DNA of 14,519 nucleotides from UHGV virus genome UHGV-0203503; one strand, 5' to 3'. This DNA is from a virus. The translations under genes were made by a program, and so were the position numbers. The notes below the pieces were generated by a model. That model saw nothing but the letters and a program-made list of their open reading frames with translations. It ran no database searches and had not been told where the DNA came from. Shown here piece after piece: positions 1,756 to 10,634 of this stretch (within the stretch, counting starts at the first letter, position 1; the number at the start of each line of letters is the position of its first letter).

Positions 1756-1989
1756 ATGTTTCCTGAGAAAATAAATATTGCTATAACACACTGGCAGACC
1801 TCTGACGGCAATGTGTTTACTGACCAGTTCGCTGCAAAGATTCATCAGGCCGTTATTGATGGTGATGCGCGAATTTGCCTAGAATGTAATGGCACTGGAA
1901 TGGTTGACCCATATTGCGATGGGAGGACTGAGTTTCCATGCCAAGAGTGCACTGGTGGTTACCAATTTAAAAATGAAACGTGGAAATGA
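1756..1989 (+). CDS. Small Cys-rich (zinc-ribbon-like) protein, 77 aa
   Basis: GGAGG 1744-1748 seven nt before ATG 1756; Cys spacing ICLECNG...YCDG...FPCQECTGG (CxxC...C...CxxC) suggests a metal-binding ribbon. Confidence 0.5.
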   Translation: MFPEKINIAITHWQTSDGNVFTDQFAAKIHQAVIDGDARICLECNGTGMVDPYCDGRTEFPCQECTGGYQFKNETWK

Positions 1990-2066
1990 TTAAGACAATA
2001 TTCAGCGTCGTAGAGATATTGTGCTATGCGATAATAATATTCGTTCTGTGTATGCTCATAGGATAA
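1986..2066 (+). CDS. Possible 26-aa hydrophobic peptide, start overlapping the upstream stop (ATGA)
   Basis: ATG 1986-1988 overlaps TGA 1987-1989; translation MIKTIFSVVEILCYAIIIFVLCMLIG; ends 5 nt before terminator stem. Could be chance in AT-rich sequence. Confidence 0.2.
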   Translation: MIKTIFSVVEILCYAIIIFVLCMLIG

Positions 2067-2071
2067 AACCA

Positions 2072-2098
2072 AGCCCTCACTTAGAGGGCTTTTTGTTT
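2072..2098. terminator. Bidirectional intrinsic terminator between convergent transcription units
   Basis: Stem AGCCCTC (2072-2078) / GAGGGCT (2084-2090), 5-nt loop, TTTTTGTTT on the plus side; minus-side tail TTGGTTTTA. Overlaps the stop of the head-morphogenesis gene. Confidence 0.55.
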
Positions 2099-3027
2099 GC
2101 TGATTGCCATGCCTCTCGCTGCTTATCAAGTCTTTCCTGCGATGACTCAAGAATAACTGGCTTTCCATCCATTAGCAGTGTTGGTACTTGTGCGCAATGA
2201 CAATTCCTTCGGTTGGCAACTTCACTATAGAACGTGTCGATTTCTTCTGGCGTGTAAAACCTCCCGTGTCTCGCCGCGTGAGTATGGCGGGTCGTGCGCA
2301 TTAATGCCGATTGCCACAGCATTACCGTCTCAATACCTAACTCTTCGCGCGCTTCAATGACTTCTCTCCTGTTTGCCTGCCGCAGCGTTCCGGTGATTTC
2401 TGTTTGCGCCAACTGTTTTGCGTAACTGTGAGACACATCGATACGCTTAACGATGTCGGCTTCAACATCACGAGGATTAGCGCCTCGAGCAATGCCTTCC
2501 ATAATGACAGATGCCAGTTGCTGACGGGAATAATCACTCAATCCGCGCCAGTCTGAATATCCTTGCGTGTACGCTAGCTGGAGTCGATTCAGATAAGGCT
2601 CACTGTAGAGTATCGCGGCAATCGGCCTCTGCTCGGCATAAACCGGAGACAGGCTTGATAGCTCTGAGTTAGCCTTCTGCGTGCCAGCATGATGCGCATC
2701 ACCAATGAACACATTAGCCCACATCCTGCCGTGACCGAAGTCGTCACCTTCAAGCAGAATCTCGTCAATCAGCGCCTGCAACTCATCCATGAAAGTGGCA
2801 GCCCGCGCACTACTAAAATCGTAGAAATACAGACCGCTTGATTCTGCGTTGGTCTGGCTGCTCGGAATGGTGCGAAACAACTCAAGCGCACGAGTCCTGA
2901 GTTGTTTGTATTTGCGCGTTATCACCTTATCCATCTTCGACAGTCGCGTTGCAGCGCCTAACGGGTCGGTCAGGCTCTGCGATATGCGCGGTTGTGGCAA
3001 CCTTGCATTAAACCGGAGTATTTTCAT
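2077..3027 (-). CDS. Phage head morphogenesis / minor capsid protein (Mu F-like, SPP1 gp7 family), ~316 aa
   Basis: Lies immediately downstream of the portal gene on the same strand; C-terminal region ([18 protein letters not shown]...) resembles Mu-F-like proteins from memory. Start set at internal ATG 3027 (GGAAGA RBS) because the track ORF start 3111 lies inside the portal gene. Confidence 0.6.
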
Positions 3028-4420
3028 TTTCGTCTTCCGGCGGCGTGTCTTCGCGATAATTTTCGTCCAGCTCAATCGGCTCCATACCCACCATGCCGCG
3101 AGCCTCATCAACAGTCAGCAATGCAGATTGACCAGCATCAAAGAACGACTTGTTCGCAGTTGCGAGCTTAGACAGCAATTCGGCCTTATCCAGCTCTGAT
3201 GGAGCCAGCAGGTCATCCCACTTAACCTTGTAGCCGTTTGCCGGGGCTTTATCGACAATGCCGAACTGAATCATGCGCTCAACGAACATTGAGATGACGT
3301 AATCAACCCATGTTTCGCGGCGCTGTTTTGCGGTCATCGCCTCCTGCATCTTGTCCTCGTCGCTCGCAAGGCGTCCGGTTTGCTGGCCAAAAATAACGGT
3401 GAACGGAAGTGCCATTGATGCGGCGAACTGGTTGGCAGCAACTTCCCATGTTGGTTTCGGGTCGGCTGGTGTCACAGCGAGAACTTTTGCATCCGCGCCC
3501 ATTGTGAACATGGCTGCGTCAATCCCGGAGTTCAGCGCATCAATGTTCTCATTCATGATGTCGGTAAGCTCTTCAATATCGACACCCATTGACTGAGCTA
3601 GGCTTGCTGGCGTTACGTTATCCTTCGTGTAGTTAACCGCCAGTTGGCGGCTAGCATTCTTCAGGAAGCCCTCTGCGGAGCTACCGGAAACCTTAGCCAT
3701 GTCGATAAGGCTGTTGTAGCCAGCACGCAGCATCGGGATGCCACTGAACATACTACCGTCAAAACTACCCTCAGCCAGAATGATGATGCGGTCTGGGTGA
3801 ATCTGTACGGAACGCTCAGGCTTGCCATTGCTGTCGAAATCTTCCACGGCGCTTTCCTGGTATTCGTACATCTCAGGCATACCGTAGTCTTCGCTGGTTT
3901 CGTCGTTATTCCACGCGCTGACGCGGAGCTGCTCCTCCCATACAGGAATAAAGCGAACGATGGATTTATCTTTAATGCGGCGGGTTTTGGTGATGTCTAC
4001 AGGCTCACTCCACTGCTTGCCGTCGCGGATTTGCAGGATAACGGCGGAATAGCGGTTGATGGCGTTGCGCTTGTCAGCCTCCTTGATGAACGGGTAGGCG
4101 CGCTTCATCATGCCGTTGATGGACAACTCCCACGACGTTGAGTTCTTATCATCCTCTCCATCTTCAACCACTTCAGGGTATTTCTGCCAGCATTTATTAA
4201 TAATGCGGTTAATACCAGCGGCGGCAGCTGGGTGTCGTTCATAGGCATAACGGAACATCTCAGCGGTAATTTCCTGCGGGTAGCCCAGCTCCTTCCACAT
4301 GAACTCACGCTTCTGGTCAAGATTCTTCCCGCCAGCACAAAGCCTCTGCTGCTGAATTGCCCGGTTATTGTTCGCTACGCGGTCGCGTATATAGGCGTTT
4401 AATGCATCAATTTTTGACAT
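3008..4420 (-). CDS. Phage portal protein, 470 aa
   Basis: 470-aa ORF between terminase large subunit and Mu-F-like gene in the conserved order; acidic C-terminus. Assignment is by position and size, not by a recognised motif. Confidence 0.6.
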
Positions 4421-4431
4421 ATGTCACCAAT

Positions 4432-4458
4432 AAAAAATCCCATCACGTTGGATGGGAT
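4432..4458 (-). terminator. Intrinsic terminator (minus strand) between the small-gene cassette and the portal gene
   Basis: Stem ATCCCATC (4437-4444) / GATGGGAT (4451-4458), 6-nt loop, followed on the minus strand by TTTTT (complement of A-run 4432-4436). Sits 11 nt upstream of the portal ATG. Confidence 0.5.
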
Positions 4459-4493
4459 TATAACACGAGCTTGCAGTGGCTATGGTTGATGGC

Positions 4494-4724
4494 TTATTCT
4501 CTCCGTGATGGTATTGCAATCATCGGTTGCGTTTGTCTTTGCATGATAGATAATAGCTCGCCCTTGTAATGTTCTGTAATTTCATTTTGCCCTTTCATGT
4601 AAATCAAGATGGCCTCCTGTTCGGTGACAATTCCTTGCTTAAACAAGGTTATTACTTTCCTTGCCATAGTATCGCAAAGAGATAATTCTTCAAGGTATTG
4701 AATCGGCGTTTCGCAGTTATCCAT
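4494..4724 (-). CDS. Hypothetical protein, 76 aa
   Basis: ATG 4724-4722 overlaps upstream stop (TGATG); track ORF 4494-4727 begins at GTG. Confidence 0.4.
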   Translation of the reverse strand: MDNCETPIQYLEELSLCDTMARKVITLFKQGIVTEQEAILIYMKGQNEITEHYKGELLSIMQRQTQPMIAIPSRRE

Positions 4725-4909
4725 CACTCCACCTTTTCCAGTTTATCAATAACAATATCGAACCCTTGGGATTGGAATATGGCGGCATTCTCGTTCGCCA
4801 TAAATACTTCGAAAGCATGAACTGCGTTTGACGCAGCTATCACCATAGACATTTTTGCGGCAACTTCACCACCACCAAGCACTTCAGCATGAATAAAATA
4901 AACGCTCAT
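4724..4909 (-). CDS. Hypothetical protein, 61 aa
   Basis: ATG 4909-4907 overlaps upstream stop (TGATG); translationally coupled chain. Confidence 0.4.
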   Translation of the reverse strand: MSVYFIHAEVLGGGEVAAKMSMVIAASNAVHAFEVFMANENAAIFQSQGFDIVIDKLEKVE

Positions 4910-5097
4910 CACTCAATCTCCTCACCATTAACCCAGCGTTGCAGGACTTCGATTAGCTGCGCGGCTTGCTGTTTGTCGATGCCAATAGAGTTAACATCAT
5001 CGCCTTCACGGAATGAAGTAAGCATAATGATAGGGTAATCACCAAAACTATGACTAACTTGCAGTTCATAGCAATTTTTTGTTTCACCAATAATCAT
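4909..5097 (-). CDS. Hypothetical protein, 62 aa
   Basis: ATG 5097-5095 preceded by GAGG at 7 nt spacing, inside the repeated element TTGAGGTGATGTGATG. Confidence 0.4.
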   Translation of the reverse strand: MIIGETKNCYELQVSHSFGDYPIIMLTSFREGDDVNSIGIDKQQAAQLIEVLQRWVNGEEIE

Positions 5098-5152
5098 CAC
5101 ATCACCTCAACAAAGTTCACCATCAGTTACCACCAACAACTTCTGCCATAAT

Positions 5153-5356
5153 TTATTTCTGAACATGATTAATCCACCATGCGGCAATTGCTGAGAAAAT
5201 CCACAAGCCGATAACAAGCCTGAAAACCTGCCAATTCAGTATGTCATCAATACTTGGCGCCTCCCATCTAATCAGCCAGATAAGCGGGAAAGCAAGCGCC
5301 AGTGCAATGGTGTACTTAATACCAATAAGAAGAAAATCTCTTAGGAAGCCTCTCAT
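5153..5356 (-). CDS. Small membrane protein, 67 aa, two predicted transmembrane helices
   Basis: Hydrophobic stretches IKYTIALALAFPLIWLI and VFRLVIGLWIFSAIAAWWI; ATG 5356 preceded by the same GAGGTGATGTG element. Confidence 0.45.
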   Translation of the reverse strand: MRGFLRDFLLIGIKYTIALALAFPLIWLIRWEAPSIDDILNWQVFRLVIGLWIFSAIAAWWINHVQK

Positions 5357-5365
5357 CACATCACC

Positions 5366-5560
5366 TCAACCAATCGGAAACCACTTATCAATGACATCAT
5401 GGAATTTTTGCATAACCTTTGCCTGCCAAAATTCAAGCCACTCAAATAAATTTCTTGCACCAGAAAAGAAAACCCACAATAACCACACAGGAACAAAAAA
5501 TGGCAGTAAAGCAATCCTTCCGATCTTGCTTCTGTTGCTCATCCTGCTTATCTTAAGCAT
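5366..5560 (-). CDS. Small membrane protein, 64 aa, one predicted transmembrane helix
   Basis: Hydrophobic stretch IALLPFFVPVWLLWVFF; ATG 5560 directly after upstream stop, preceded by GAGGGTGATGTG. Confidence 0.45.
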   Translation of the reverse strand: MLKISRMSNRSKIGRIALLPFFVPVWLLWVFFSGARNLFEWLEFWQAKVMQKFHDVIDKWFPIG

Positions 5561-5564
5561 CACA

Positions 5565-5771
5565 TCACCCTCTCAAAAAATCATTCTTGCAGCAGATACC
5601 CTTGTACCCGCGCTTCTCCTGCAGATTAACGAAAACATCATCCAGAACGCGCAGCAGGAAATCCTCGTCAATATCATACCGACGGCAAATCACCTCATCA
5701 GGTACACCAGCCCGCGCCAGTGAATAAACCTGCTCTTTTTCCTCCTGTGTGAATCCTGCATAGCTGCGCAT
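5565..5771 (-). CDS. Hypothetical protein, 68 aa (first gene of the minus cassette)
   Basis: ATG 5771 with GGAG at 8 nt spacing; ~24 nt downstream of predicted promoter P2b. Confidence 0.45.
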   Translation of the reverse strand: MRSYAGFTQEEKEQVYSLARAGVPDEVICRRYDIDEDFLLRVLDDVFVNLQEKRGYKGICCKNDFLRG

Positions 5772-5801
5772 AGTGATATCTCCGATAAGCCTGATGTAGA
5801 T

Positions 5802-5830
5802 ATACTATGCGCTCGGTGTAGATTGGTCAA
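5802..5830 (-). promoter_or_regulatory. sigma70-like promoter P2b for the minus six-gene cassette
   Basis: On the minus strand: -35 TTGACC (complement of 5825-5830), 17-nt spacer, -10 TAGTAT (complement of 5802-5807), then ATCTACATCA as in P1. Confidence 0.4.
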
Positions 5831-5868
5831 GTGTGGCGATGAGGATTTATCGACATTAACAGTAAATG

Positions 5869-5897
5869 TTGACGTAGATATGTTGGTGACGTAGAAT
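5869..5897 (+). promoter_or_regulatory. Near-consensus sigma70 promoter P2 for the plus two-gene cassette
   Basis: -35 TTGACG 5869-5874, exactly 17 nt spacer, -10 TAGAAT 5892-5897; divergent from P2b. Confidence 0.5.
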
Positions 5898-5930
5898 CAT
5901 CTTATCGAAAAGAGATTAAGGAACAAGAGA

Positions 5931-6086
5931 ATGTTTGAGACTAAAAAAGAATGCGAAGCGTATATTGCCGAAACTTATGGTGCTGACTACGTTAAATTTG
6001 GCATCGTTACCGCCCAGAAAGTCGGCCCAACAATCGCCAAGATGCTTGGTATTAAAGAAGGTTACTACCCATCAAATGCCTACTAA
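5931..6086 (+). CDS. Small hypothetical protein, 51 aa (below ORF-track cutoff)
   Basis: ATG 5931 preceded by AAGGAA (5918-5923); translation MFETKKECEAYIAETYGADYVKFGIVTAQKVGPTIAKMLGIKEGYYPSNAY; alternative reading to the TTG-initiated 117-aa track ORF. Confidence 0.4.
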   Translation: MFETKKECEAYIAETYGADYVKFGIVTAQKVGPTIAKMLGIKEGYYPSNAY

Positions 6087-6090
6087 TTAC

Positions 6091-6288
6091 ATGCCGAGAT
6101 GCCTTCGTGAAATACCGAAGGCAAAAGTGAAGCCAAGAAATCAAGCAATAAAAGAGGCAAAGATTGAGGCTTTCAATATTGCCATTTCGATAATAAAAGA
6201 GAGATGCAGAGATGAAAAGTCTGAACGCGTTAAATCAAACATGTATGCAGCTGTGAGTGATATATCAAGATTGAGAGATGAGCTTTAA
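6091..6288 (+). CDS. Small hypothetical protein, 65 aa
   Basis: ATG 6091 in the frame of track ORF 5935-6288; basic, helix-like sequence (MPRCLREIPKAKVKPRNQAIKEAKIEAF...); RBS weak, start uncertain (an in-frame ATG at 6076 is also possible). Confidence 0.3.
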   Translation: MPRCLREIPKAKVKPRNQAIKEAKIEAFNIAISIIKERCRDEKSERVKSNMYAAVSDISRLRDEL

Positions 6289-6317
6289 GCCCTCATTTGA
6301 GGGCTTTATTTTTATCG
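6288..6317 (+). terminator. Intrinsic terminator of the plus cassette, lying 7 nt from the terL stop
   Basis: Stem AGCCCTC (6288-6294) / GAGGGCT (6299-6305), loop ATTT, followed by TTATTTTTAT on plus; no T-tract on the minus side. Confidence 0.55.
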
Positions 6318-7736
6318 CCTGCGTCGGATTAGCATTCCGCTTCCGCGCTGGACGATGTGGTCATTTAGTGCGTAACGAACGGCATCCCAGAAGTGGTTAA
6401 ATGCATCGACAATATCAGTCAGCACATTCCCCGTCAGCTTATCGACCTTGTAGCTGTACATCGTTGCTTCATTCTGCATTTCCTTGCATCGCTCGTGGAT
6501 GATGATGCTGTCACATCCGCGCAGCCACGTGACGCCATCCTCAACGCTTCCCGGCCATTTAGTGCACGGGTGAATATCGAATCCAGAGCGCTTGATGTGA
6601 CTGATAGTCTCAGGTCGAGCGCAGTCTGCATACCATCGCGCGCGCTTAGCCATAGGGAATGATTGCTCCATCGCAGCTGGCGTATCGGTAATCTCAAGGC
6701 CAACCTTGCCATACTCTCGATTAATATAAATGTTGCGCCGTCCATCTGGTAATTCTTCGATATAAACCTCAACCATCGCGGTAGGATCGGTGGAAAACCC
6801 GAAGTCCATCCCGAAGTATGGGCCATGCCATTCAGGTTTGACTTCAAAGTCATCAACGCGCCATTTGCCACCGAATACCTGCTCGTCGCTTCGCTTGTTA
6901 AAGGCTCCCATCCAAATCCAGCGGTAACGGTCGTAATCAGTTCGTTTCATTTGCTCCATGGCGGATGGCAGCGGTGTATCCCAGAACCACGGGTTGTCTG
7001 AATAGTTACATTCGATAATCAGAATTTCATCATTTTCGAATATTCCATCAACCATCTGTGAGTGATAAGGAGCAATCCAGTTTTTCCATGTCGGGTCTGT
7101 TTCCTTGTTGGGGTTAAATGAGCACCACAGCTCGGAATTGGCGGCGCGGATGGTAGGCACGAGAATGTCCCAGCTTGTCTGGCTGACGTTCTCCGCTTCC
7201 TCTACCCAACCGACGGTAATGCCAGCAAAGCCCTTAACGGTTGTCTGATTGCGATACAACCCCTTAAAGCGAAACTTTGCTTTGGTCTTCTTGTGTGTTA
7301 TCTCGTTGTTGATAACGCGAAACTCAGCTGACTCGCCTTTGCGGGCTATCTCATCAACAAGCTCCTGATAGCTTGAGTCTTCAATGGATTGCTGAATCTC
7401 ACGGAAGCAGGCAAAGCGGTCGGGTCGAAACCTTGCGCGCTCAGTAAGGATGGTGATAATTGTTCTCGTTTTCCCTGACCCACGCCCACCATAGACAAAC
7501 TTGAAACGTTTGGGGTATAGCAGACGTTCCAGCTTTGCCGGAATGAGGTGGTCGGCATGAGTGGTTGCATTGGTCACATCATCAACGCCAGTAGCGGTCA
7601 TCCTTAACCGCTTGATGACGTTTTTCTGCATGTCGCAGATACCAAAGATAGCTGATTCTGCGACATCTGTCATTGCATCATCAATCTGCGCTTCCAGCTT
7701 TTCTATTGCCAGCGCGGAGAGGCGTTTACGAGCCAT
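6312..7736 (-). CDS. terL: Phage terminase large subunit, ~474 aa
   Basis: Walker A VYGGRGSGKT, Walker B-like ITVGWVEEAE, nuclease-domain-like GMDFGFSTDP. Start set at ATG 7736 (GGAG RBS, 11-nt overlap with the terS stop) rather than track start 7805. Confidence 0.88.
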   Translation of the reverse strand: MARKRLSALAIEKLEAQIDDAMTDVAESAIFGICDMQKNVIKRLRMTATGVDDVTNATTHADHLIPAKLERLLYPKRFKFVYGGRGSGKTRTIITILTERARFRPDRFACFREIQQSIEDSSYQELVDEIARKGESAEFRVINNEITHKKTKAKFRFKGLYRNQTTVKGFAGITVGWVEEAENVSQTSWDILVPTIRAANSELWCSFNPNKETDPTWKNWIAPYHSQMVDGIFENDEILIIECNYSDNPWFWDTPLPSAMEQMKRTDYDRYRWIWMGAFNKRSDEQVFGGKWRVDDFEVKPEWHGPYFGMDFGFSTDPTAMVEVYIEELPDGRRNIYINREYGKVGLEITDTPAAMEQSFPMAKRARWYADCARPETISHIKRSGFDIHPCTKWPGSVEDGVTWLRGCDSIIIHERCKEMQNEATMYSYKVDKLTGNVLTDIVDAFNHFWDAVRYALNDHIVQRGSGMLIRRRR

Positions 7737-8172
7737 TCTGCTGCTCCAGCAATTTCTCCAGTCGTTCAAGGCGCGCGGCGAGTTCGGTAATTTCCTGAAT
7801 ATCAAGGCCAGACTTGATAATGTCTGCCATCATCTTTCCGATGTCGGCAGGAACAACGCCAGTGGATACACCCTTGATGATTGCGTCCATTTTTTGCACC
7901 GGGGTTCCGTCAGCAGGGAAGTCGAACTCCACAGGAGGAGCTACAGGCTTAGGAATTGGGTTGAGCCTCAGGAATATCTCTCGAAGCATACTGGTAGCCT
8001 GAGCGTCTTCGCATGTCATCGCCTTATTGATGTAATAAGTGACGAATTCAATCTCACTCATCGGTGTATTCGCAGCACGAAGCGCCTCAAGCAGCACAGT
8101 GCGATAGCTCTTTCCGCGCGGAGGTGGTTGATTTGTAGATGAAAATTTGTGTTTTGGATTTGGGTTTGCCAT
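7726..8172 (-). CDS. terS: Phage terminase small subunit (probable), 148 aa
   Basis: Immediately upstream of and overlapping terL; basic N-terminus and helical C-terminus; start at ATG 8172 (track ORF extends to 8247 but first ATG is at codon 26). Confidence 0.6.
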   Translation of the reverse strand: MANPNPKHKFSSTNQPPPRGKSYRTVLLEALRAANTPMSEIEFVTYYINKAMTCEDAQATSMLREIFLRLNPIPKPVAPPVEFDFPADGTPVQKMDAIIKGVSTGVVPADIGKMMADIIKSGLDIQEITELAARLERLEKLLEQQNGS

Positions 8173-8229
8173 GTCTATTGTGTTCTTTGAGTAACTCACA
8201 TACGTTAATTTTAACACATAGACGTAGAT

Positions 8230-8255
8230 AAAAAAGAACCCGCACAAGGCGGGTT
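8230..8255 (-). terminator. Intrinsic terminator (minus strand) ending the small-gene operon before terS
   Basis: Stem AACCCGC (8237-8243) / GCGGGTT (8249-8255), 5-nt loop, followed on minus by CTTTTTT (complement of 8230-8236). Confidence 0.5.
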
Positions 8256-8299
8256 AAGGTTGGGTGATGATATGAGTGAAAGTAGTGGTGGTTATGTGC

Positions 8300-8473
8300 T
8301 TATTGTACACCATCATTATCACGCTTGCCAGCATGGCACCATGCGTTTTCATCACGAGTCTGCACATGAACGATTTCAAGCGCATCAGGGAATGTCTTTG
8401 CTATCTTCGCGATAAAATCGTCCAATTCGTGCTGTTTGGCGAGTTGCCAGACTTTCTGTTTAGTGGTTTGCAT
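8300..8473 (-). CDS. Hypothetical protein, 57 aa
   Basis: ATG 8473 with GAGGG 9 nt upstream; part of track ORF 8300-8539; last gene before the terminator. Confidence 0.3.
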   Translation of the reverse strand: MQTTKQKVWQLAKQHELDDFIAKIAKTFPDALEIVHVQTRDENAWCHAGKRDNDGVQ

Positions 8474-8639
8474 TTGCAAAAGCCCTCGTAGAGCACATGT
8501 ATTTAATCTCATGCACACCATTGTCTGGCACAACCTCAATGCGATTGCTGAGCTGCACCATCATGTAATGGCATGTCATCATACCGTCCCAGTATCGTTT
8601 CCACATAAATTCCATTGCGGCGTTGATATCGTCAAACAT
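8460..8639 (-). CDS. Hypothetical protein, 59 aa (below ORF-track cutoff)
   Basis: ATG 8639-8637 overlaps the end of the upstream gene (ATGTTTGA); translation MFDDINAAMEFMWKRYWDGMMTCHYMMVQLSNRIEVVPDNGVHEIKYMCSTRAFANANH. Confidence 0.3.
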   Translation of the reverse strand: MFDDINAAMEFMWKRYWDGMMTCHYMMVQLSNRIEVVPDNGVHEIKYMCSTRAFANANH

Positions 8640-8952
8640 AATGCTGCCACCCCCTTTTAACCCATGCTACGCGATTTTTGTTGGTGTGAATCAGTCCTCT
8701 TGCGCTTTCTGTTAAATATGGTAGTTCTCTGTTGTTAAACGGATAATCACCATTAAGTCCAGCTTTAATGAATTGCTGCCGCATTAACTTTCTTGCCTGC
8801 TCCCTTTCCTTTGGTGTTGACCCCATCACCTTTAAATGCAAGGTTAAGGAAACACAAATACCGCAATTACGACTAAATGGTTTACCTTCTGGCGCTCCAG
8901 CATCAATCCAGTCGGAGTATACTTCATAAAAATCAGCTAATTGATTAAACAT
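8632..8952 (-). CDS. Hypothetical protein, 106 aa
   Basis: ATG 8952 with AGGAG 9 nt upstream; track ORF 8632-8970. Confidence 0.5.
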   Translation of the reverse strand: MFNQLADFYEVYSDWIDAGAPEGKPFSRNCGICVSLTLHLKVMGSTPKEREQARKLMRQQFIKAGLNGDYPFNNRELPYLTESARGLIHTNKNRVAWVKRGWQHYV

Positions 8953-9052
8953 AATGCACAACTCCTGCAATAGCCGCTACCAGTGCAAGCACATAAACAG
9001 CAAGGAAAATTTTAGCGCCAGTGGTGTAGTTGCGTCGTTGGTACTTGGTCAT
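8945..9052 (-). CDS. Possible 35-aa single-helix membrane peptide
   Basis: ATG 9052-9050 overlaps upstream TGA (ATGA); translation MTKYQRRNYTTGAKIFLAVYVLALVAAIAGVVHYV; its stop overlaps the next gene start. Confidence 0.2.
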   Translation of the reverse strand: MTKYQRRNYTTGAKIFLAVYVLALVAAIAGVVHYV

Positions 9053-9246
9053 TCGTCGTTCTCCCGCCCTAGATATGAGAGTGATGTGATTGCCACTGCC
9101 GTGAACCTGTCACTGCCAATCAAACTCTTCAGCACCTCGACATCTTCTTGCGATTTAATTCTGAACGTCAACTGAGCTATGCCAGCCACTGATGACGCGC
9201 CTCCTGCAGATATTGCATTGTAGTGATAAATATATCTATTGCTCAT
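9049..9246 (-). CDS. Hypothetical protein, 65 aa
   Basis: ATG 9246 with GGAG 8 nt upstream; track ORF 9049-9252. Confidence 0.4.
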   Translation of the reverse strand: MSNRYIYHYNAISAGGASSVAGIAQLTFRIKSQEDVEVLKSLIGSDRFTAVAITSLSYLGRENDE

Positions 9247-9309
9247 CCACACATCTCCACTAAAGCGTGCGCCACATAGAGCGCACTGATAATTAACATG
9301 AACGGGTAG

Positions 9310-9699
9310 CTATTCACTTTTAGCCAGGCTTTCGAATTGCTGTGCTATGGTGTCAAACTGAACCATCTTGACAACATCGTCGAACATGACAAATTCTCCT
9401 TCATGGTCTTCACTCATGTCAGCACCGTAATCCTCCCGCTTCGGTGCTGCTGCGATAATTTCACCCTCGTATCCGATTCCAATGCTCCTCGATTCACCTA
9501 TGTAGACTACCGGACATCCGACGAGATAATCTGAGTGCGAAGCAAGCTTACCATTCAAAATTTTACCGTCATTCATCCTTACATAAACATCCGACATCAA
9601 CGGAAGCGCCATTATTTGCTCATAGGTTAGCTTTACTGGCTTGGCGGAGTTCATTACCGGCATGTACTTAGGCGGCTTGCGCCCGTTCACCCTGCTCAT
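9310..9699 (-). CDS. Hypothetical protein, 129 aa
   Basis: ATG 9699 preceded by AGGAGG (4 nt spacing); acidic C-terminal half. Confidence 0.55.
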   Translation of the reverse strand: MSRVNGRKPPKYMPVMNSAKPVKLTYEQIMALPLMSDVYVRMNDGKILNGKLASHSDYLVGCPVVYIGESRSIGIGYEGEIIAAAPKREDYGADMSEDHEGEFVMFDDVVKMVQFDTIAQQFESLAKSE

Positions 9700-9841
9700 T
9701 CGACCTCCTGCTGTGGTGCTTCTGCGAGCATTGTCACAAGAGCCATGAAATCAGCATACTTAACATATAAACCAGAAATGTCATCGCCATCTGTATTAAG
9801 CTACGCGTCGTTGCAGTTTGCTGCGTATGTTTTAACTTCAC

Positions 9842-10075
9842 TCATACCCTAACCCCCATAATTTCTTCGTAATAGCCATCTTCTTCAAACTCAATCTTTG
9901 CGATTTTGAGCGCATCCTCATCTGTGATATCAATCGCTTTGAATTTGCATTTTGACAGCACTATGCAGCCTGACAGGATTAACCACTTATTCCACAAGCG
10001 CACTCGCCTGATTGTCCTGCTCGAATACATCTTGTTCTGCACAAACCAGAACTCGTATGTTTTTACTTTCGCCAT
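9842..10075 (-). CDS. Hypothetical protein, 77 aa
   Basis: ATG 10075; GGTGA upstream; track ORF. Confidence 0.45.
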   Translation of the reverse strand: MAKVKTYEFWFVQNKMYSSRTIRRVRLWNKWLILSGCIVLSKCKFKAIDITDEDALKIAKIEFEEDGYYEEIMGVRV

Positions 10076-10111
10076 ATCATCACCATTAAAAATAAGAGTG
10101 CTGAATCGTGT

Positions 10112-10294
10112 TCAAAATACGATAATCAGCTCATCCATCACTCTGTGCTTACCTTCACCATTAAACACGCGCACAACTCGATTTACGCGGATAGATTCCA
10201 TTGCATTGCGTGCCTGCTTGCTCATAAAGTTCTGCGCGCCAACGTGACCGAGTTCCGGTTCCAGCTTCTCGCGACGATAGATAGTCTTTGCCAT
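10112..10294 (-). CDS. Hypothetical protein, 60 aa
   Basis: ATG 10294 with AGGAG at 6 nt spacing. Confidence 0.45.
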   Translation of the reverse strand: MAKTIYRREKLEPELGHVGAQNFMSKQARNAMESIRVNRVVRVFNGEGKHRVMDELIIVF

Positions 10295-10297
10295 TTG

Positions 10298-10393
10298 TTA
10301 CTCCTTATACCCTGATTTAGAAACTGCCACTGCGATAATGATGGATGCCACGATAACCAGACTGGCGACAAGCTCGAATGTTGCGCCTGTCAT
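10298..10393 (-). CDS. Possible 30-aa single-helix membrane peptide
   Basis: ATG 10393-10391 overlaps upstream TGA; translation MTGATFELVASLVIVASIIIAVAVSKSGYKE; stop overlaps the RBS of the next gene. Confidence 0.2.
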   Translation of the reverse strand: MTGATFELVASLVIVASIIIAVAVSKSGYKE

Positions 10394-10575
10394 TTCTTCG
10401 AAGCCTTATATTCATCTTCTGTCAACGCGTATGCCTCGCAAATCATGTTTGCCGCATCAATAATGACATTTGAGCGCATGTCAGCAGGCAGGCTTGGAAC
10501 CTGTTGTGACAATGCCATGCATATATCGCTGAATAACTTCATCTGGTCGATGCTGTACGTGCTTTCTTCTTTCAT
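10390..10575 (-). CDS. Hypothetical protein, 61 aa (first gene of the minus operon)
   Basis: ATG 10575 with GAGGGTGA upstream; ~24 nt downstream of predicted promoter P4. Confidence 0.45.
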   Translation of the reverse strand: MKEESTYSIDQMKLFSDICMALSQQVPSLPADMRSNVIIDAANMICEAYALTEDEYKASKK

Positions 10576-10605: not shown

Positions 10606-10634
10606 AATCTACATCAGTTGTGATTCTACGTCAA
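10606..10634 (-). promoter_or_regulatory. sigma70-like promoter P4 for the minus operon 10575 to 8300
   Basis: Minus strand reads TTGACG (complement of 10629-10634), 17-nt spacer, TAGATT (complement of 10606-11); same architecture as P2. Confidence 0.45.

Follow-up and report, generated by a model that had tools for sequence, protein, structure and literature searches.

We analyzed a 14,519-nucleotide stretch of the virus genome UHGV-0203503 (14.5 kb, 45% GC; hereafter the window) and in particular three very short open reading frames (ORFs) within it, each encoding a hydrophobic peptide. ORF1 (1986-2066, plus strand) encodes MIKTIFSVVEILCYAIIIFVLCMLIG, a peptide of 26 amino acids (aa) with a single hydrophobic helix, and is the last gene of a plus-strand operon. 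ORF2 (8945-9052, minus strand) encodes MTKYQRRNYTTGAKIFLAVYVLALVAAIAGVVHYV, 35 aa, with a basic N-terminus, one transmembrane (TM) helix and an HYV tail; ORF3 (10298-10393, minus strand) encodes MTGATFELVASLVIVASIIIAVAVSKSGYKE, with a short acidic N-terminus, one TM helix and an SKSGYKE tail. All three were found where a preliminary description of the window had placed them, although ORF3 proved to be 31 aa long rather than 30. The window belongs to a lytic small siphophage of the Skatevirus/Swiduovirus/Caminolopintovirus cluster: it matches Escherichia phage vB_EcoS_swi2 best (90.8% identity, with 70% of the window covered), after which many Salmonella, Escherichia and Shigella phages match.

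The preliminary description held that each peptide is a single hydrophobic helix with charged ends. The helix is borne out by hydropathy, the best 17-residue Kyte-Doolittle mean (KD17) being 2.88 for ORF1, 2.78 for ORF2 and 3.07 for ORF3, and AlphaFold2 models ORF2 and ORF3 as one helix each (residues 3-34 with a predicted local distance difference test score, pLDDT, of 83, and residues 2-29 with a pLDDT of 88). The charged ends hold only in part: the N-terminus of ORF2 is basic and ORF3 carries E7 and a KSGYKE tail, but the HYV tail of ORF2 is uncharged, while the window copy of ORF1 has K3 but buries its other charge (E10) and ends in an uncharged G. Among 24 relatives this last residue is R in 22 and K in one. 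ORF1 also has a conserved buried glutamate and two cysteines. The positive-inside rule predicts that the N-terminus of ORF2 and the C-terminus of ORF3 would face the cytoplasm and that ORF1 would be nearly all buried.

Comparison with related phages indicates that ORF1, ORF2 and ORF3 are protein-coding genes and that selection acts on their helices. Loci were drawn from IMG/VR (33 around ORF2 and ORF3, 69 around ORF1), together with GenBank records, and the ratio of nonsynonymous to synonymous change (pN/pS) was determined for each ORF. The frame of ORF1 is open in 25 of 25 sequences including the window, with a pN/pS of 0.14 (bootstrap 95% confidence interval 0.05-0.29); that of ORF2 is open in 31 of 31, again including the window (pN/pS 0.37, interval 0.21-0.59), and that of ORF3 in 32 of 35, made up of 34 relatives and the window (0.27, 0.15-0.49). 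Overall, 88 of 91 sequences have an open frame, and for none of the three ORFs did any of 2,000 codon bootstraps reach a pN/pS of 1. Conservation and synonymous substitution in relatives were what the preliminary description had proposed to look at, and for all three ORFs the frame is conserved and pN/pS lies below 1. Stops abound in the five alternative frames, whose ratios are ~0.4-2.5; for reference, the pN/pS of the neighboring DUF7540 gene is 0.09. Within ORF2 the TM helix has a pN/pS of 0.20 and the polar N-terminus, which drifts yet is still basic, 0.92. In ORF1, 17 of 26 residues are invariant at a synonymous divergence of 0.2. The most divergent copy (locus L082) differs from the window by seven synonymous and six nonsynonymous codon changes, five of the latter being conservative hydrophobic swaps and the sixth the change of the C-terminal G to R; the terminator hairpin of that locus differs in sequence as well. 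The hydrophobic, single-helix character is retained in all copies.

A fourth tiny hydrophobic ORF (9243-9317, minus strand, 24 aa), with a GTG start and a stop overlapping the next ATG, was considered as a gene and rejected. Its pN/pS is 0.58 against 0.44 in another frame, its synonymous divergence is low, indels break the frame in three relatives, and the start is absent from a fourth. Its sequence marks it as a conserved non-coding element. Since this non-coding control scores 0.58 with broken frames and a real neighboring gene 0.09, the pN/pS test discriminates. The element lies just upstream of a 67-aa gene, is conserved at 89-98% identity in DNA, and holds a GC-rich hairpin of 7 bp (GUGCGCC/GGCGCAC) upstream of ORF2 whose stability does not exceed that of shuffled sequences (z -0.7). 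Also rejected was an antisense ORF of 69 aa (1959-2168) as the cause of ORF1 conservation: it contains stops in 4 of 19 sequences and has a ratio of 0.77.

Each of the three ORFs begins at an ATG that overlaps the upstream TGA as ATGA, the upstream ORFs being 61-77 aa long (1756-1989, 9049-9252 and 10390-10575). That much of the preliminary description stands. It had further argued that three peptides with the same coupling in one window are more than chance would give; the ORFs are indeed real, but the argument from geometry is weak. The 4-nucleotide (nt) ATGA/GTGA overlap is the commonest junction in the window (8 of ~22 same-strand junctions) and, being the default, is no special signature of the peptides. 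Hydrophobicity sets them apart: among the 73 ORFs of 24-45 aa in the window that start with ATG, exactly three have a KD17 of at least 2.7, and these are ORF1, ORF2 and ORF3, which also account for three of the five ORFs of this size that combine the ATGA overlap with a long upstream ORF. In 300 random windows generated from a first-order Markov model the mean number of equally hydrophobic ORFs was 0.04, compared to the three observed, and none was coupled. It is nonetheless conservation, and not geometry, that settles the question of chance.

When the window is aligned with its relatives, blocks of homology typically run from the ATG of the small ORF to its stop or slightly beyond; the genes on either side are exchanged or newly inserted, and the small ORF stays in place. 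The three ORFs thus behave as independent modules. Coupling is kept behind unrelated upstream genes in relatives, and the Shine-Dalgarno sequence is good for ORF2 and weak for ORF1 and ORF3.

At the ORF1 locus the upstream gene (1756-1989, plus strand; phrog_12574) encodes a 77-aa Cys-rich (CxxC...CxxC) protein with weak zinc-finger-like Pfam matches, and its TGA overlaps the ATG of ORF1. This gene stands upstream of ORF1 only in the window and in two related loci (L043 and L056); in most relatives ORF1 instead overlaps, by 8 nt (ATGATTAA), the gene for a variable protein ending ...AAGKIPGVKLDD. Members of the latter family (108-294 aa) are highly variable, with only the C-terminus ...IYDAIAAGKIPGVKL(D/E)D conserved. 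The window has a member too (1160-1753, 197 aa, ending ...GVKLED), and the 77-aa Cys-rich gene is inserted between it and ORF1. ORF1 itself is present in 54 GenBank phage records at 96-100% aa identity, and in 24 IMG/VR or GenBank loci. A degenerate ORF1 DNA pattern matched 25 IMG/VR contigs, all of the same phage type, and one 'Pantoea eucrina' scaffold that is itself Skatevirus-like phage sequence; the search with this pattern found no ORF1 homologs in bacteria or prophages. Relatives that lack ORF1 fill the last-gene slot with other small genes, many encoding one or two TM segments and others zinc-ribbon-like, and by its sequence content the ORF1 position is a variable accessory slot. Across loci L039-L104 the contents of the slot, ahead of a bidirectional terminator, are ORF1, a 64-aa TM protein resembling the product of a window ORF (5366-5563, minus strand), a 63-aa two-TM protein, two-TM peptides of 42-43 aa, an 18-aa hydrophobic ORF and CxxC zinc-ribbon-like peptides of 25-40 aa.

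The bidirectional intrinsic terminator (AAGCCCTC-ACTTA-GAGGGCTT followed by a T-run; 2071-2099, both strands) begins 4 nt past the end of ORF1 and also serves the convergent head-morphogenesis gene (2077-3111, minus strand), whose stop codon falls inside it; the annotation of phage Skate has a terminator at the same place. Near-identical hairpins (AAGCCCTC...GAGGGCTT) occur at 2071-2091 and 6287-6306, each between convergent genes, the first following ORF1 and the second a plus-strand gene (5935-6288).

Upstream of ORF2 is the 67-aa gene (9049-9252, minus strand; phrog_29890), whose TGA overlaps the ORF2 ATG and which contributes a GGAG 8 nt upstream of that ATG. It precedes ORF2 in few relatives only (L003, L005 and L008). 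In most of the others ORF2 is preceded by a short conserved non-coding stretch, the equivalent of 9243-9317, with a GGAG of its own: ORF2 is coupled solely where an upstream gene of 66-85 aa is present and elsewhere uses its own GGAG. Downstream, a 106-aa gene (8632-8952, minus strand; phrog_2510) has an ATG that overlaps the end of ORF2 by 8 nt (ATGTTTAA). An 11-nt direct repeat, GCATTATGTTT (minus strand), flanks this gene at 8634-8644 and 8947-8957, each copy consisting of the last codons of the preceding gene plus the ATG of the next, and many relatives have ORF2 immediately next to the 59-aa gene (8460-8639 in the window). From its sequence context the 106-aa gene has the look of an insertion, one gene in size, at a start/stop overlap. 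Longer predicted proteins in some metagenomic relatives (P0045, 157 aa, and P0046, 55 aa) have ORF2 as their C-terminal part. They represent read-through from the upstream Eae-like gene or fusion to another small gene, and could be either real membrane-anchored fusions or gene-calling artefacts.

ORF3 follows a 61-aa gene (10390-10575, minus strand) whose TGA overlaps its ATG; in relatives, unrelated genes of 48 or 64 aa replace the 61-aa gene and the ATGA overlap is always kept. The next gene, encoding a 60-aa DUF7540 protein (10112-10294, minus strand; Pfam PF24386, E 1e-32), starts 3 nt after the ORF3 stop, and the last sense codons of ORF3, AAG GAG, are its Shine-Dalgarno sequence. ORF3 is interrupted naturally at codon 7, by a nonsense codon, in VSt472 and one metagenomic phage, and late in the frame, by a stop, in Vi II-E1. 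Most relatives carry an ORF of 26-27 aa (MSNWHNEHIMQWYRRRIK...) directly after ORF3 and before the DUF7540 gene; the window, at the corresponding position (10294-10298), is without it. In locus L001 this ORF lies between 10871 and 10960, and in L006-L035 just after ORF3. Its Pfam match is PF08133, 'anticodon nuclease activator' (T4 Stp; E 1e-8); some records bear the NCBI name Stp, and in swi2 it carries no annotation. T4 Stp is an anti-restriction peptide that also triggers PrrC. The operon, which in most relatives has this Stp homolog next to ORF3, thus does carry genes for very short effectors directed against host defences.

The wider gene layout can be read from annotated relatives. Lysis genes lie at the left edge and are followed by the plus-strand small-gene operon (~277-2066), the convergent head-morphogenesis and portal genes, the terminase, the minus-strand small-gene operon (~10575-8300) and replication genes. 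The minus-strand operon, which includes ORF3 and ORF2, has about ten genes of 31-129 aa. Upstream of it is a sigma-70-like promoter match, TTGACG-17-TAGATT (10606-10634, minus strand), a consensus match with predicted function, and it is closed by an intrinsic-terminator-like hairpin and T-run (8237-8255, minus strand) upstream of the terminase genes, a terminator being annotated at the equivalent place in Skate. All three ORFs, by these sequence signals, sit in small-gene operons with host-type (sigma-70-like) promoters and terminators of their own, and the host-type promoters suggest that the peptides are probably expressed early.

Two of the three genes are already catalogued. ORF2 belongs to phrog_9340 (E 1.3e-17; residues 1-35 aligned to profile positions 7-41 of 43) and ORF3 to phrog_35977 (E 1e-20; residues 1-31 on profile positions 1-31 of 31). 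The exact sequences of both are in NCBI nr as DAH88132.1 (ORF2) and DAH88138.1 (ORF3), entitled 'MAG TPA: hypothetical protein [Caudoviricetes sp.]', which makes a metagenome-assembled phage the probable source of the window. In Skate, curated annotation names gp56 (ORF2) and gp60 (ORF3) 'membrane protein', and in swi2 both are hypothetical proteins. Between the Skate proteins and ORF2 and ORF3 we see no difference: length is the same, as is position in the same operon, and the family match is full-length. A single-sequence search with ORF2 against 1.84e9 representatives returned only four clusters, all of the same family or its fusions and mis-calls, the family being as restricted in its spread as ORF1. 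For ORF3, tblastn against phages gave no match, though local searches find it in 33 of 33 related IMG/VR loci; we attribute the miss to the low-complexity filter. ORF1, unlike the Skate families, belongs to no PHROG, Pfam or NCBIfam family and has no entry in the databases: searches against PHROG, Pfam, NCBIfam and PADLOC models gave no family at E <= 1-10, and 12 sequence variants of ORF1 were absent from a collection of ~15 billion (15e9) predicted proteins. Since that collection does hold 26-aa peptides such as T4 Stp, the absence of ORF1 is a real annotation gap. Common gene callers apply a minimum of 90 nt, and ORF1, at 81 nt, falls below it. What is new here, then, is ORF1, conserved yet unannotated.

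The consequences of losing ORF2 or ORF3 can be seen in seszw, a Skatevirus that was the subject of a genome-reduction study from which dozens of viable mutant genomes were deposited (PMC9825161). Compared to a near-wild-type clone, the 38.1-kb clone seszw_170S carries two precise deletions, one removing nearly all of ORF3 (seszw gene 53) and the other removing ORF2 from codon 21 on (codons 21-35). ORF3 is kept in only ~10 of the ~44 deposited seszw mutant records, and ORF2 is truncated in at least seven. ORF1 is absent from seszw, so that these data cover ORF2 and ORF3 only. Taken with the natural nonsense alleles, the viable deletions show ORF2 and ORF3 to be accessory rather than core genes.

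The preliminary description had offered three possible roles for such peptides: membrane-targeting toxins, holin-like factors, or modulators of membrane proteins. Analogy with known small membrane proteins makes the last the most plausible class, and we lean, by a little over even, towards the view that the three genes encode accessory single-pass inner-membrane microproteins, with helix-helix binding to a larger membrane protein as the proposed mechanism. Ribosomes handed over from the preceding gene through the start/stop overlap would translate the peptides; each helix of 26-35 aa would insert in the host inner membrane and would there pack against the TM region of a larger membrane protein, of host or phage, altering its activity. 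The outcome could be, for example, to block a channel used by superinfecting phages or to blunt a membrane-bound host function or defence. The ORFs are exchanged mosaically among relatives and occasionally knocked out in nature. As purposes, the exclusion of superinfecting phages and interference with a host function or defence bound to the membrane appear most plausible, since the genes are probably expressed early, are distributed mosaically and can be dispensed with in pure culture.

Several observations weigh against this view. Translation of the peptides, and what we infer of their membrane insertion and mechanism, are predictions from sequence. No gene for a membrane-protein partner adjoins ORF1, ORF2 or ORF3, whose neighbors are variable and appear to encode small soluble proteins. 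Because the neighbors vary between relatives, any target would be encoded elsewhere, probably by the host. Searches of ORF1, ORF2 and ORF3 against PHROGs, Pfam, NCBIfam and PADLOC for proteins of known function returned families of unknown function or nothing. The pN/pS estimates draw on 19-32 close, phylogenetically non-independent sequences of 25-34 codons each, and part of the conservation of ORF2 and ORF3 comes from their 3' ends, where each runs into the next gene's start or ribosome-binding site. With weak Shine-Dalgarno sequences, ORF1 and ORF3 depend for expression on the assumed coupling. Finally, viable deletions and nonsense alleles imply that any selective benefit is conditional and perhaps small.

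A narrower form of the microprotein interpretation, which we regard as doubtful but worth entertaining, is that the peptides serve superinfection exclusion, acting early in the inner membrane to block DNA entry by the same or a related phage, as the exclusion proteins T4 Imm and HK97 gp15 do. Probable early expression from host-type promoters and the predicted inner-membrane location agree with this; loss costs nothing in single-phage laboratory passage, and the patchy, mosaic distribution is typical of accessory competition genes. However, none of the three peptides resembles a known exclusion protein in PHROGs, Pfam or PADLOC, the exclusion proteins known to us are at least about 60 aa and thus larger, and nothing links the peptides to the route by which the DNA of these O-antigen-dependent phages enters the cell. 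A quite unlikely variant is that ORF1, possibly with ORF2 and ORF3, encodes a sequence-specific TM 'binder' in the manner of papillomavirus E5, each peptide switching off one host inner-membrane protein; possible targets would be a channel through which the DNA of competing phages enters, or a defence system's membrane effector. The peptides might instead damage the membrane, oligomerizing and depolarizing it as do type I toxins or holins and antiholins, and so aid host shutdown or lysis. Buried glutamates and cysteines, such as those conserved in ORF1, occur in some pore-forming or oligomerizing helices. In size and composition the peptides are like type I toxins, which have 19-35 aa and one TM helix (PMC12648545). 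Yet a holin-like role fits poorly with what this phage group already has: Skate possesses a complete cassette of class II holin, endolysin and embedded i-/o-spanin, and in relatives the lysis cassette (holin, endolysins, spanins) lies beyond the left edge of the window, 1.8-10 kb from the peptides. The peptides lie in other operons, with host-type promoters, where early depolarization would, we would expect, harm the phage; and seszw mutants with the ORF2 and ORF3 homologs deleted still lyse their host and form plaques (PMC9825161). As far as sequence can tell, the genes lack a promoter of their own, a structured leader and an antisense partner, being coupled in operons, and models of Hok, Ldr, Ibs, Tis and holins give no match. 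A lysis or holin role is thus unlikely, and membrane damage in general very unlikely.

Two further explanations dispense with the peptide altogether. Were the short ORFs a translation relay, their translation would merely pass ribosomes downstream and carry the next ribosome-binding site. ORF3 does end in the AAGGAG Shine-Dalgarno sequence, 3 nt from the DUF7540 ATG, the next ATG lies within an 8-nt overlap with the end of ORF2, and the overlaps are kept whatever gene flanks them. A relay, however, needs no set amino-acid sequence, and nonsynonymous change is suppressed 3-7 fold, specifically in the helix; a hydrophobic single helix is kept in all copies, and ORF1 is followed by a terminator rather than by a gene. 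We therefore hold a relay to be highly improbable. That the ORFs are chance readings of non-coding or regulatory DNA, with no product, is scarcely credible and largely refuted. They are short, the ribosome-binding sites of ORF1 and ORF3 are weak, no annotation pipeline calls ORF1, and ORF3 is interrupted in three relatives; but the substitution pattern is frame-specific and nearly all frames (88 of 91) are open, three hydrophobic ORFs stand against the 0.04 expected per random window, and the conserved non-coding ORF next door (9243-9317) behaves differently.

The finding is modest: current understanding is unchanged, and two of the genes were known as families. Small membrane proteins are nevertheless a large and mostly unstudied share of phage genes, and the present case indicates that careful comparative analysis can separate real genes of 26-35 codons from look-alike conserved non-coding ORFs. 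ORF1, a well-conserved gene of 26 aa, is left unannotated in all genomes deposited for this phage group. Phages of this kind are in development against Salmonella and E. coli and carry dispensable, predicted membrane-active accessory genes; the peptides could lead to host membrane proteins worth targeting by phages. If they were indeed specific binders, few phage effectors with a defined target would be as small, and ORF1 would be a conserved effector missed by every annotation pipeline.

Comparison with known systems places the three peptides nearer to some classes than to others. Holins and antiholins are, like them, small phage membrane helices, but are far longer and belong to the lysis cassette, and ORF2 and ORF3 are dispensable for plaques. 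The type I toxins (TisB 29 aa, IbsC 19 aa, ShoB 26 aa, Ldr 35 aa) share with them a length below 60 aa and a single hydrophobic helix; these toxins, however, have their own transcription unit, an antisense RNA antitoxin and a sequestered ribosome-binding site, whereas ORF1, ORF2 and ORF3 are coupled in polycistronic operons. The window contains no match to any Rfam family, and the absence of an antisense RNA partner is judged on the DNA and not on transcripts. Phage T4 encodes tiny predicted inner-membrane proteins (Ac, 51 aa; gp52.1, 46 aa; Ndd.4, 42 aa) beside the 26-aa stp, which is also the neighbor of ORF3 in relatives. The T4 proteins are longer, and comparison of the three peptides with Ac, gp52.1, Ndd.2, Ndd.2a and Ndd.4 gave no significant similarity after shuffling and multiple-test correction (for the best pair, ORF1 and Ndd.4, shuffling gives P = 0.02-0.04 when the 18 comparisons are not corrected for). 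The T4 arrangement and the Stp homolog in relatives give the microprotein interpretation some support from context. Among small membrane proteins of bacteria, MgtS, KdpF and AcrZ, for instance, work by binding larger membrane proteins (PMC12648545). MgtS (31 aa), MgtR (30 aa), KdpF (29 aa) and AcrZ (49 aa) have no homology to the phage-encoded peptides, and for KdpF and CydX the partner gene is in the same operon, whereas the operons of ORF1, ORF2 and ORF3 contain none. The size class (<= 50 aa), the single TM helix and the very short tails are nevertheless shared, and the strong sequence constraint on the helices of the three ORFs fits specific helix packing of the predicted kind.

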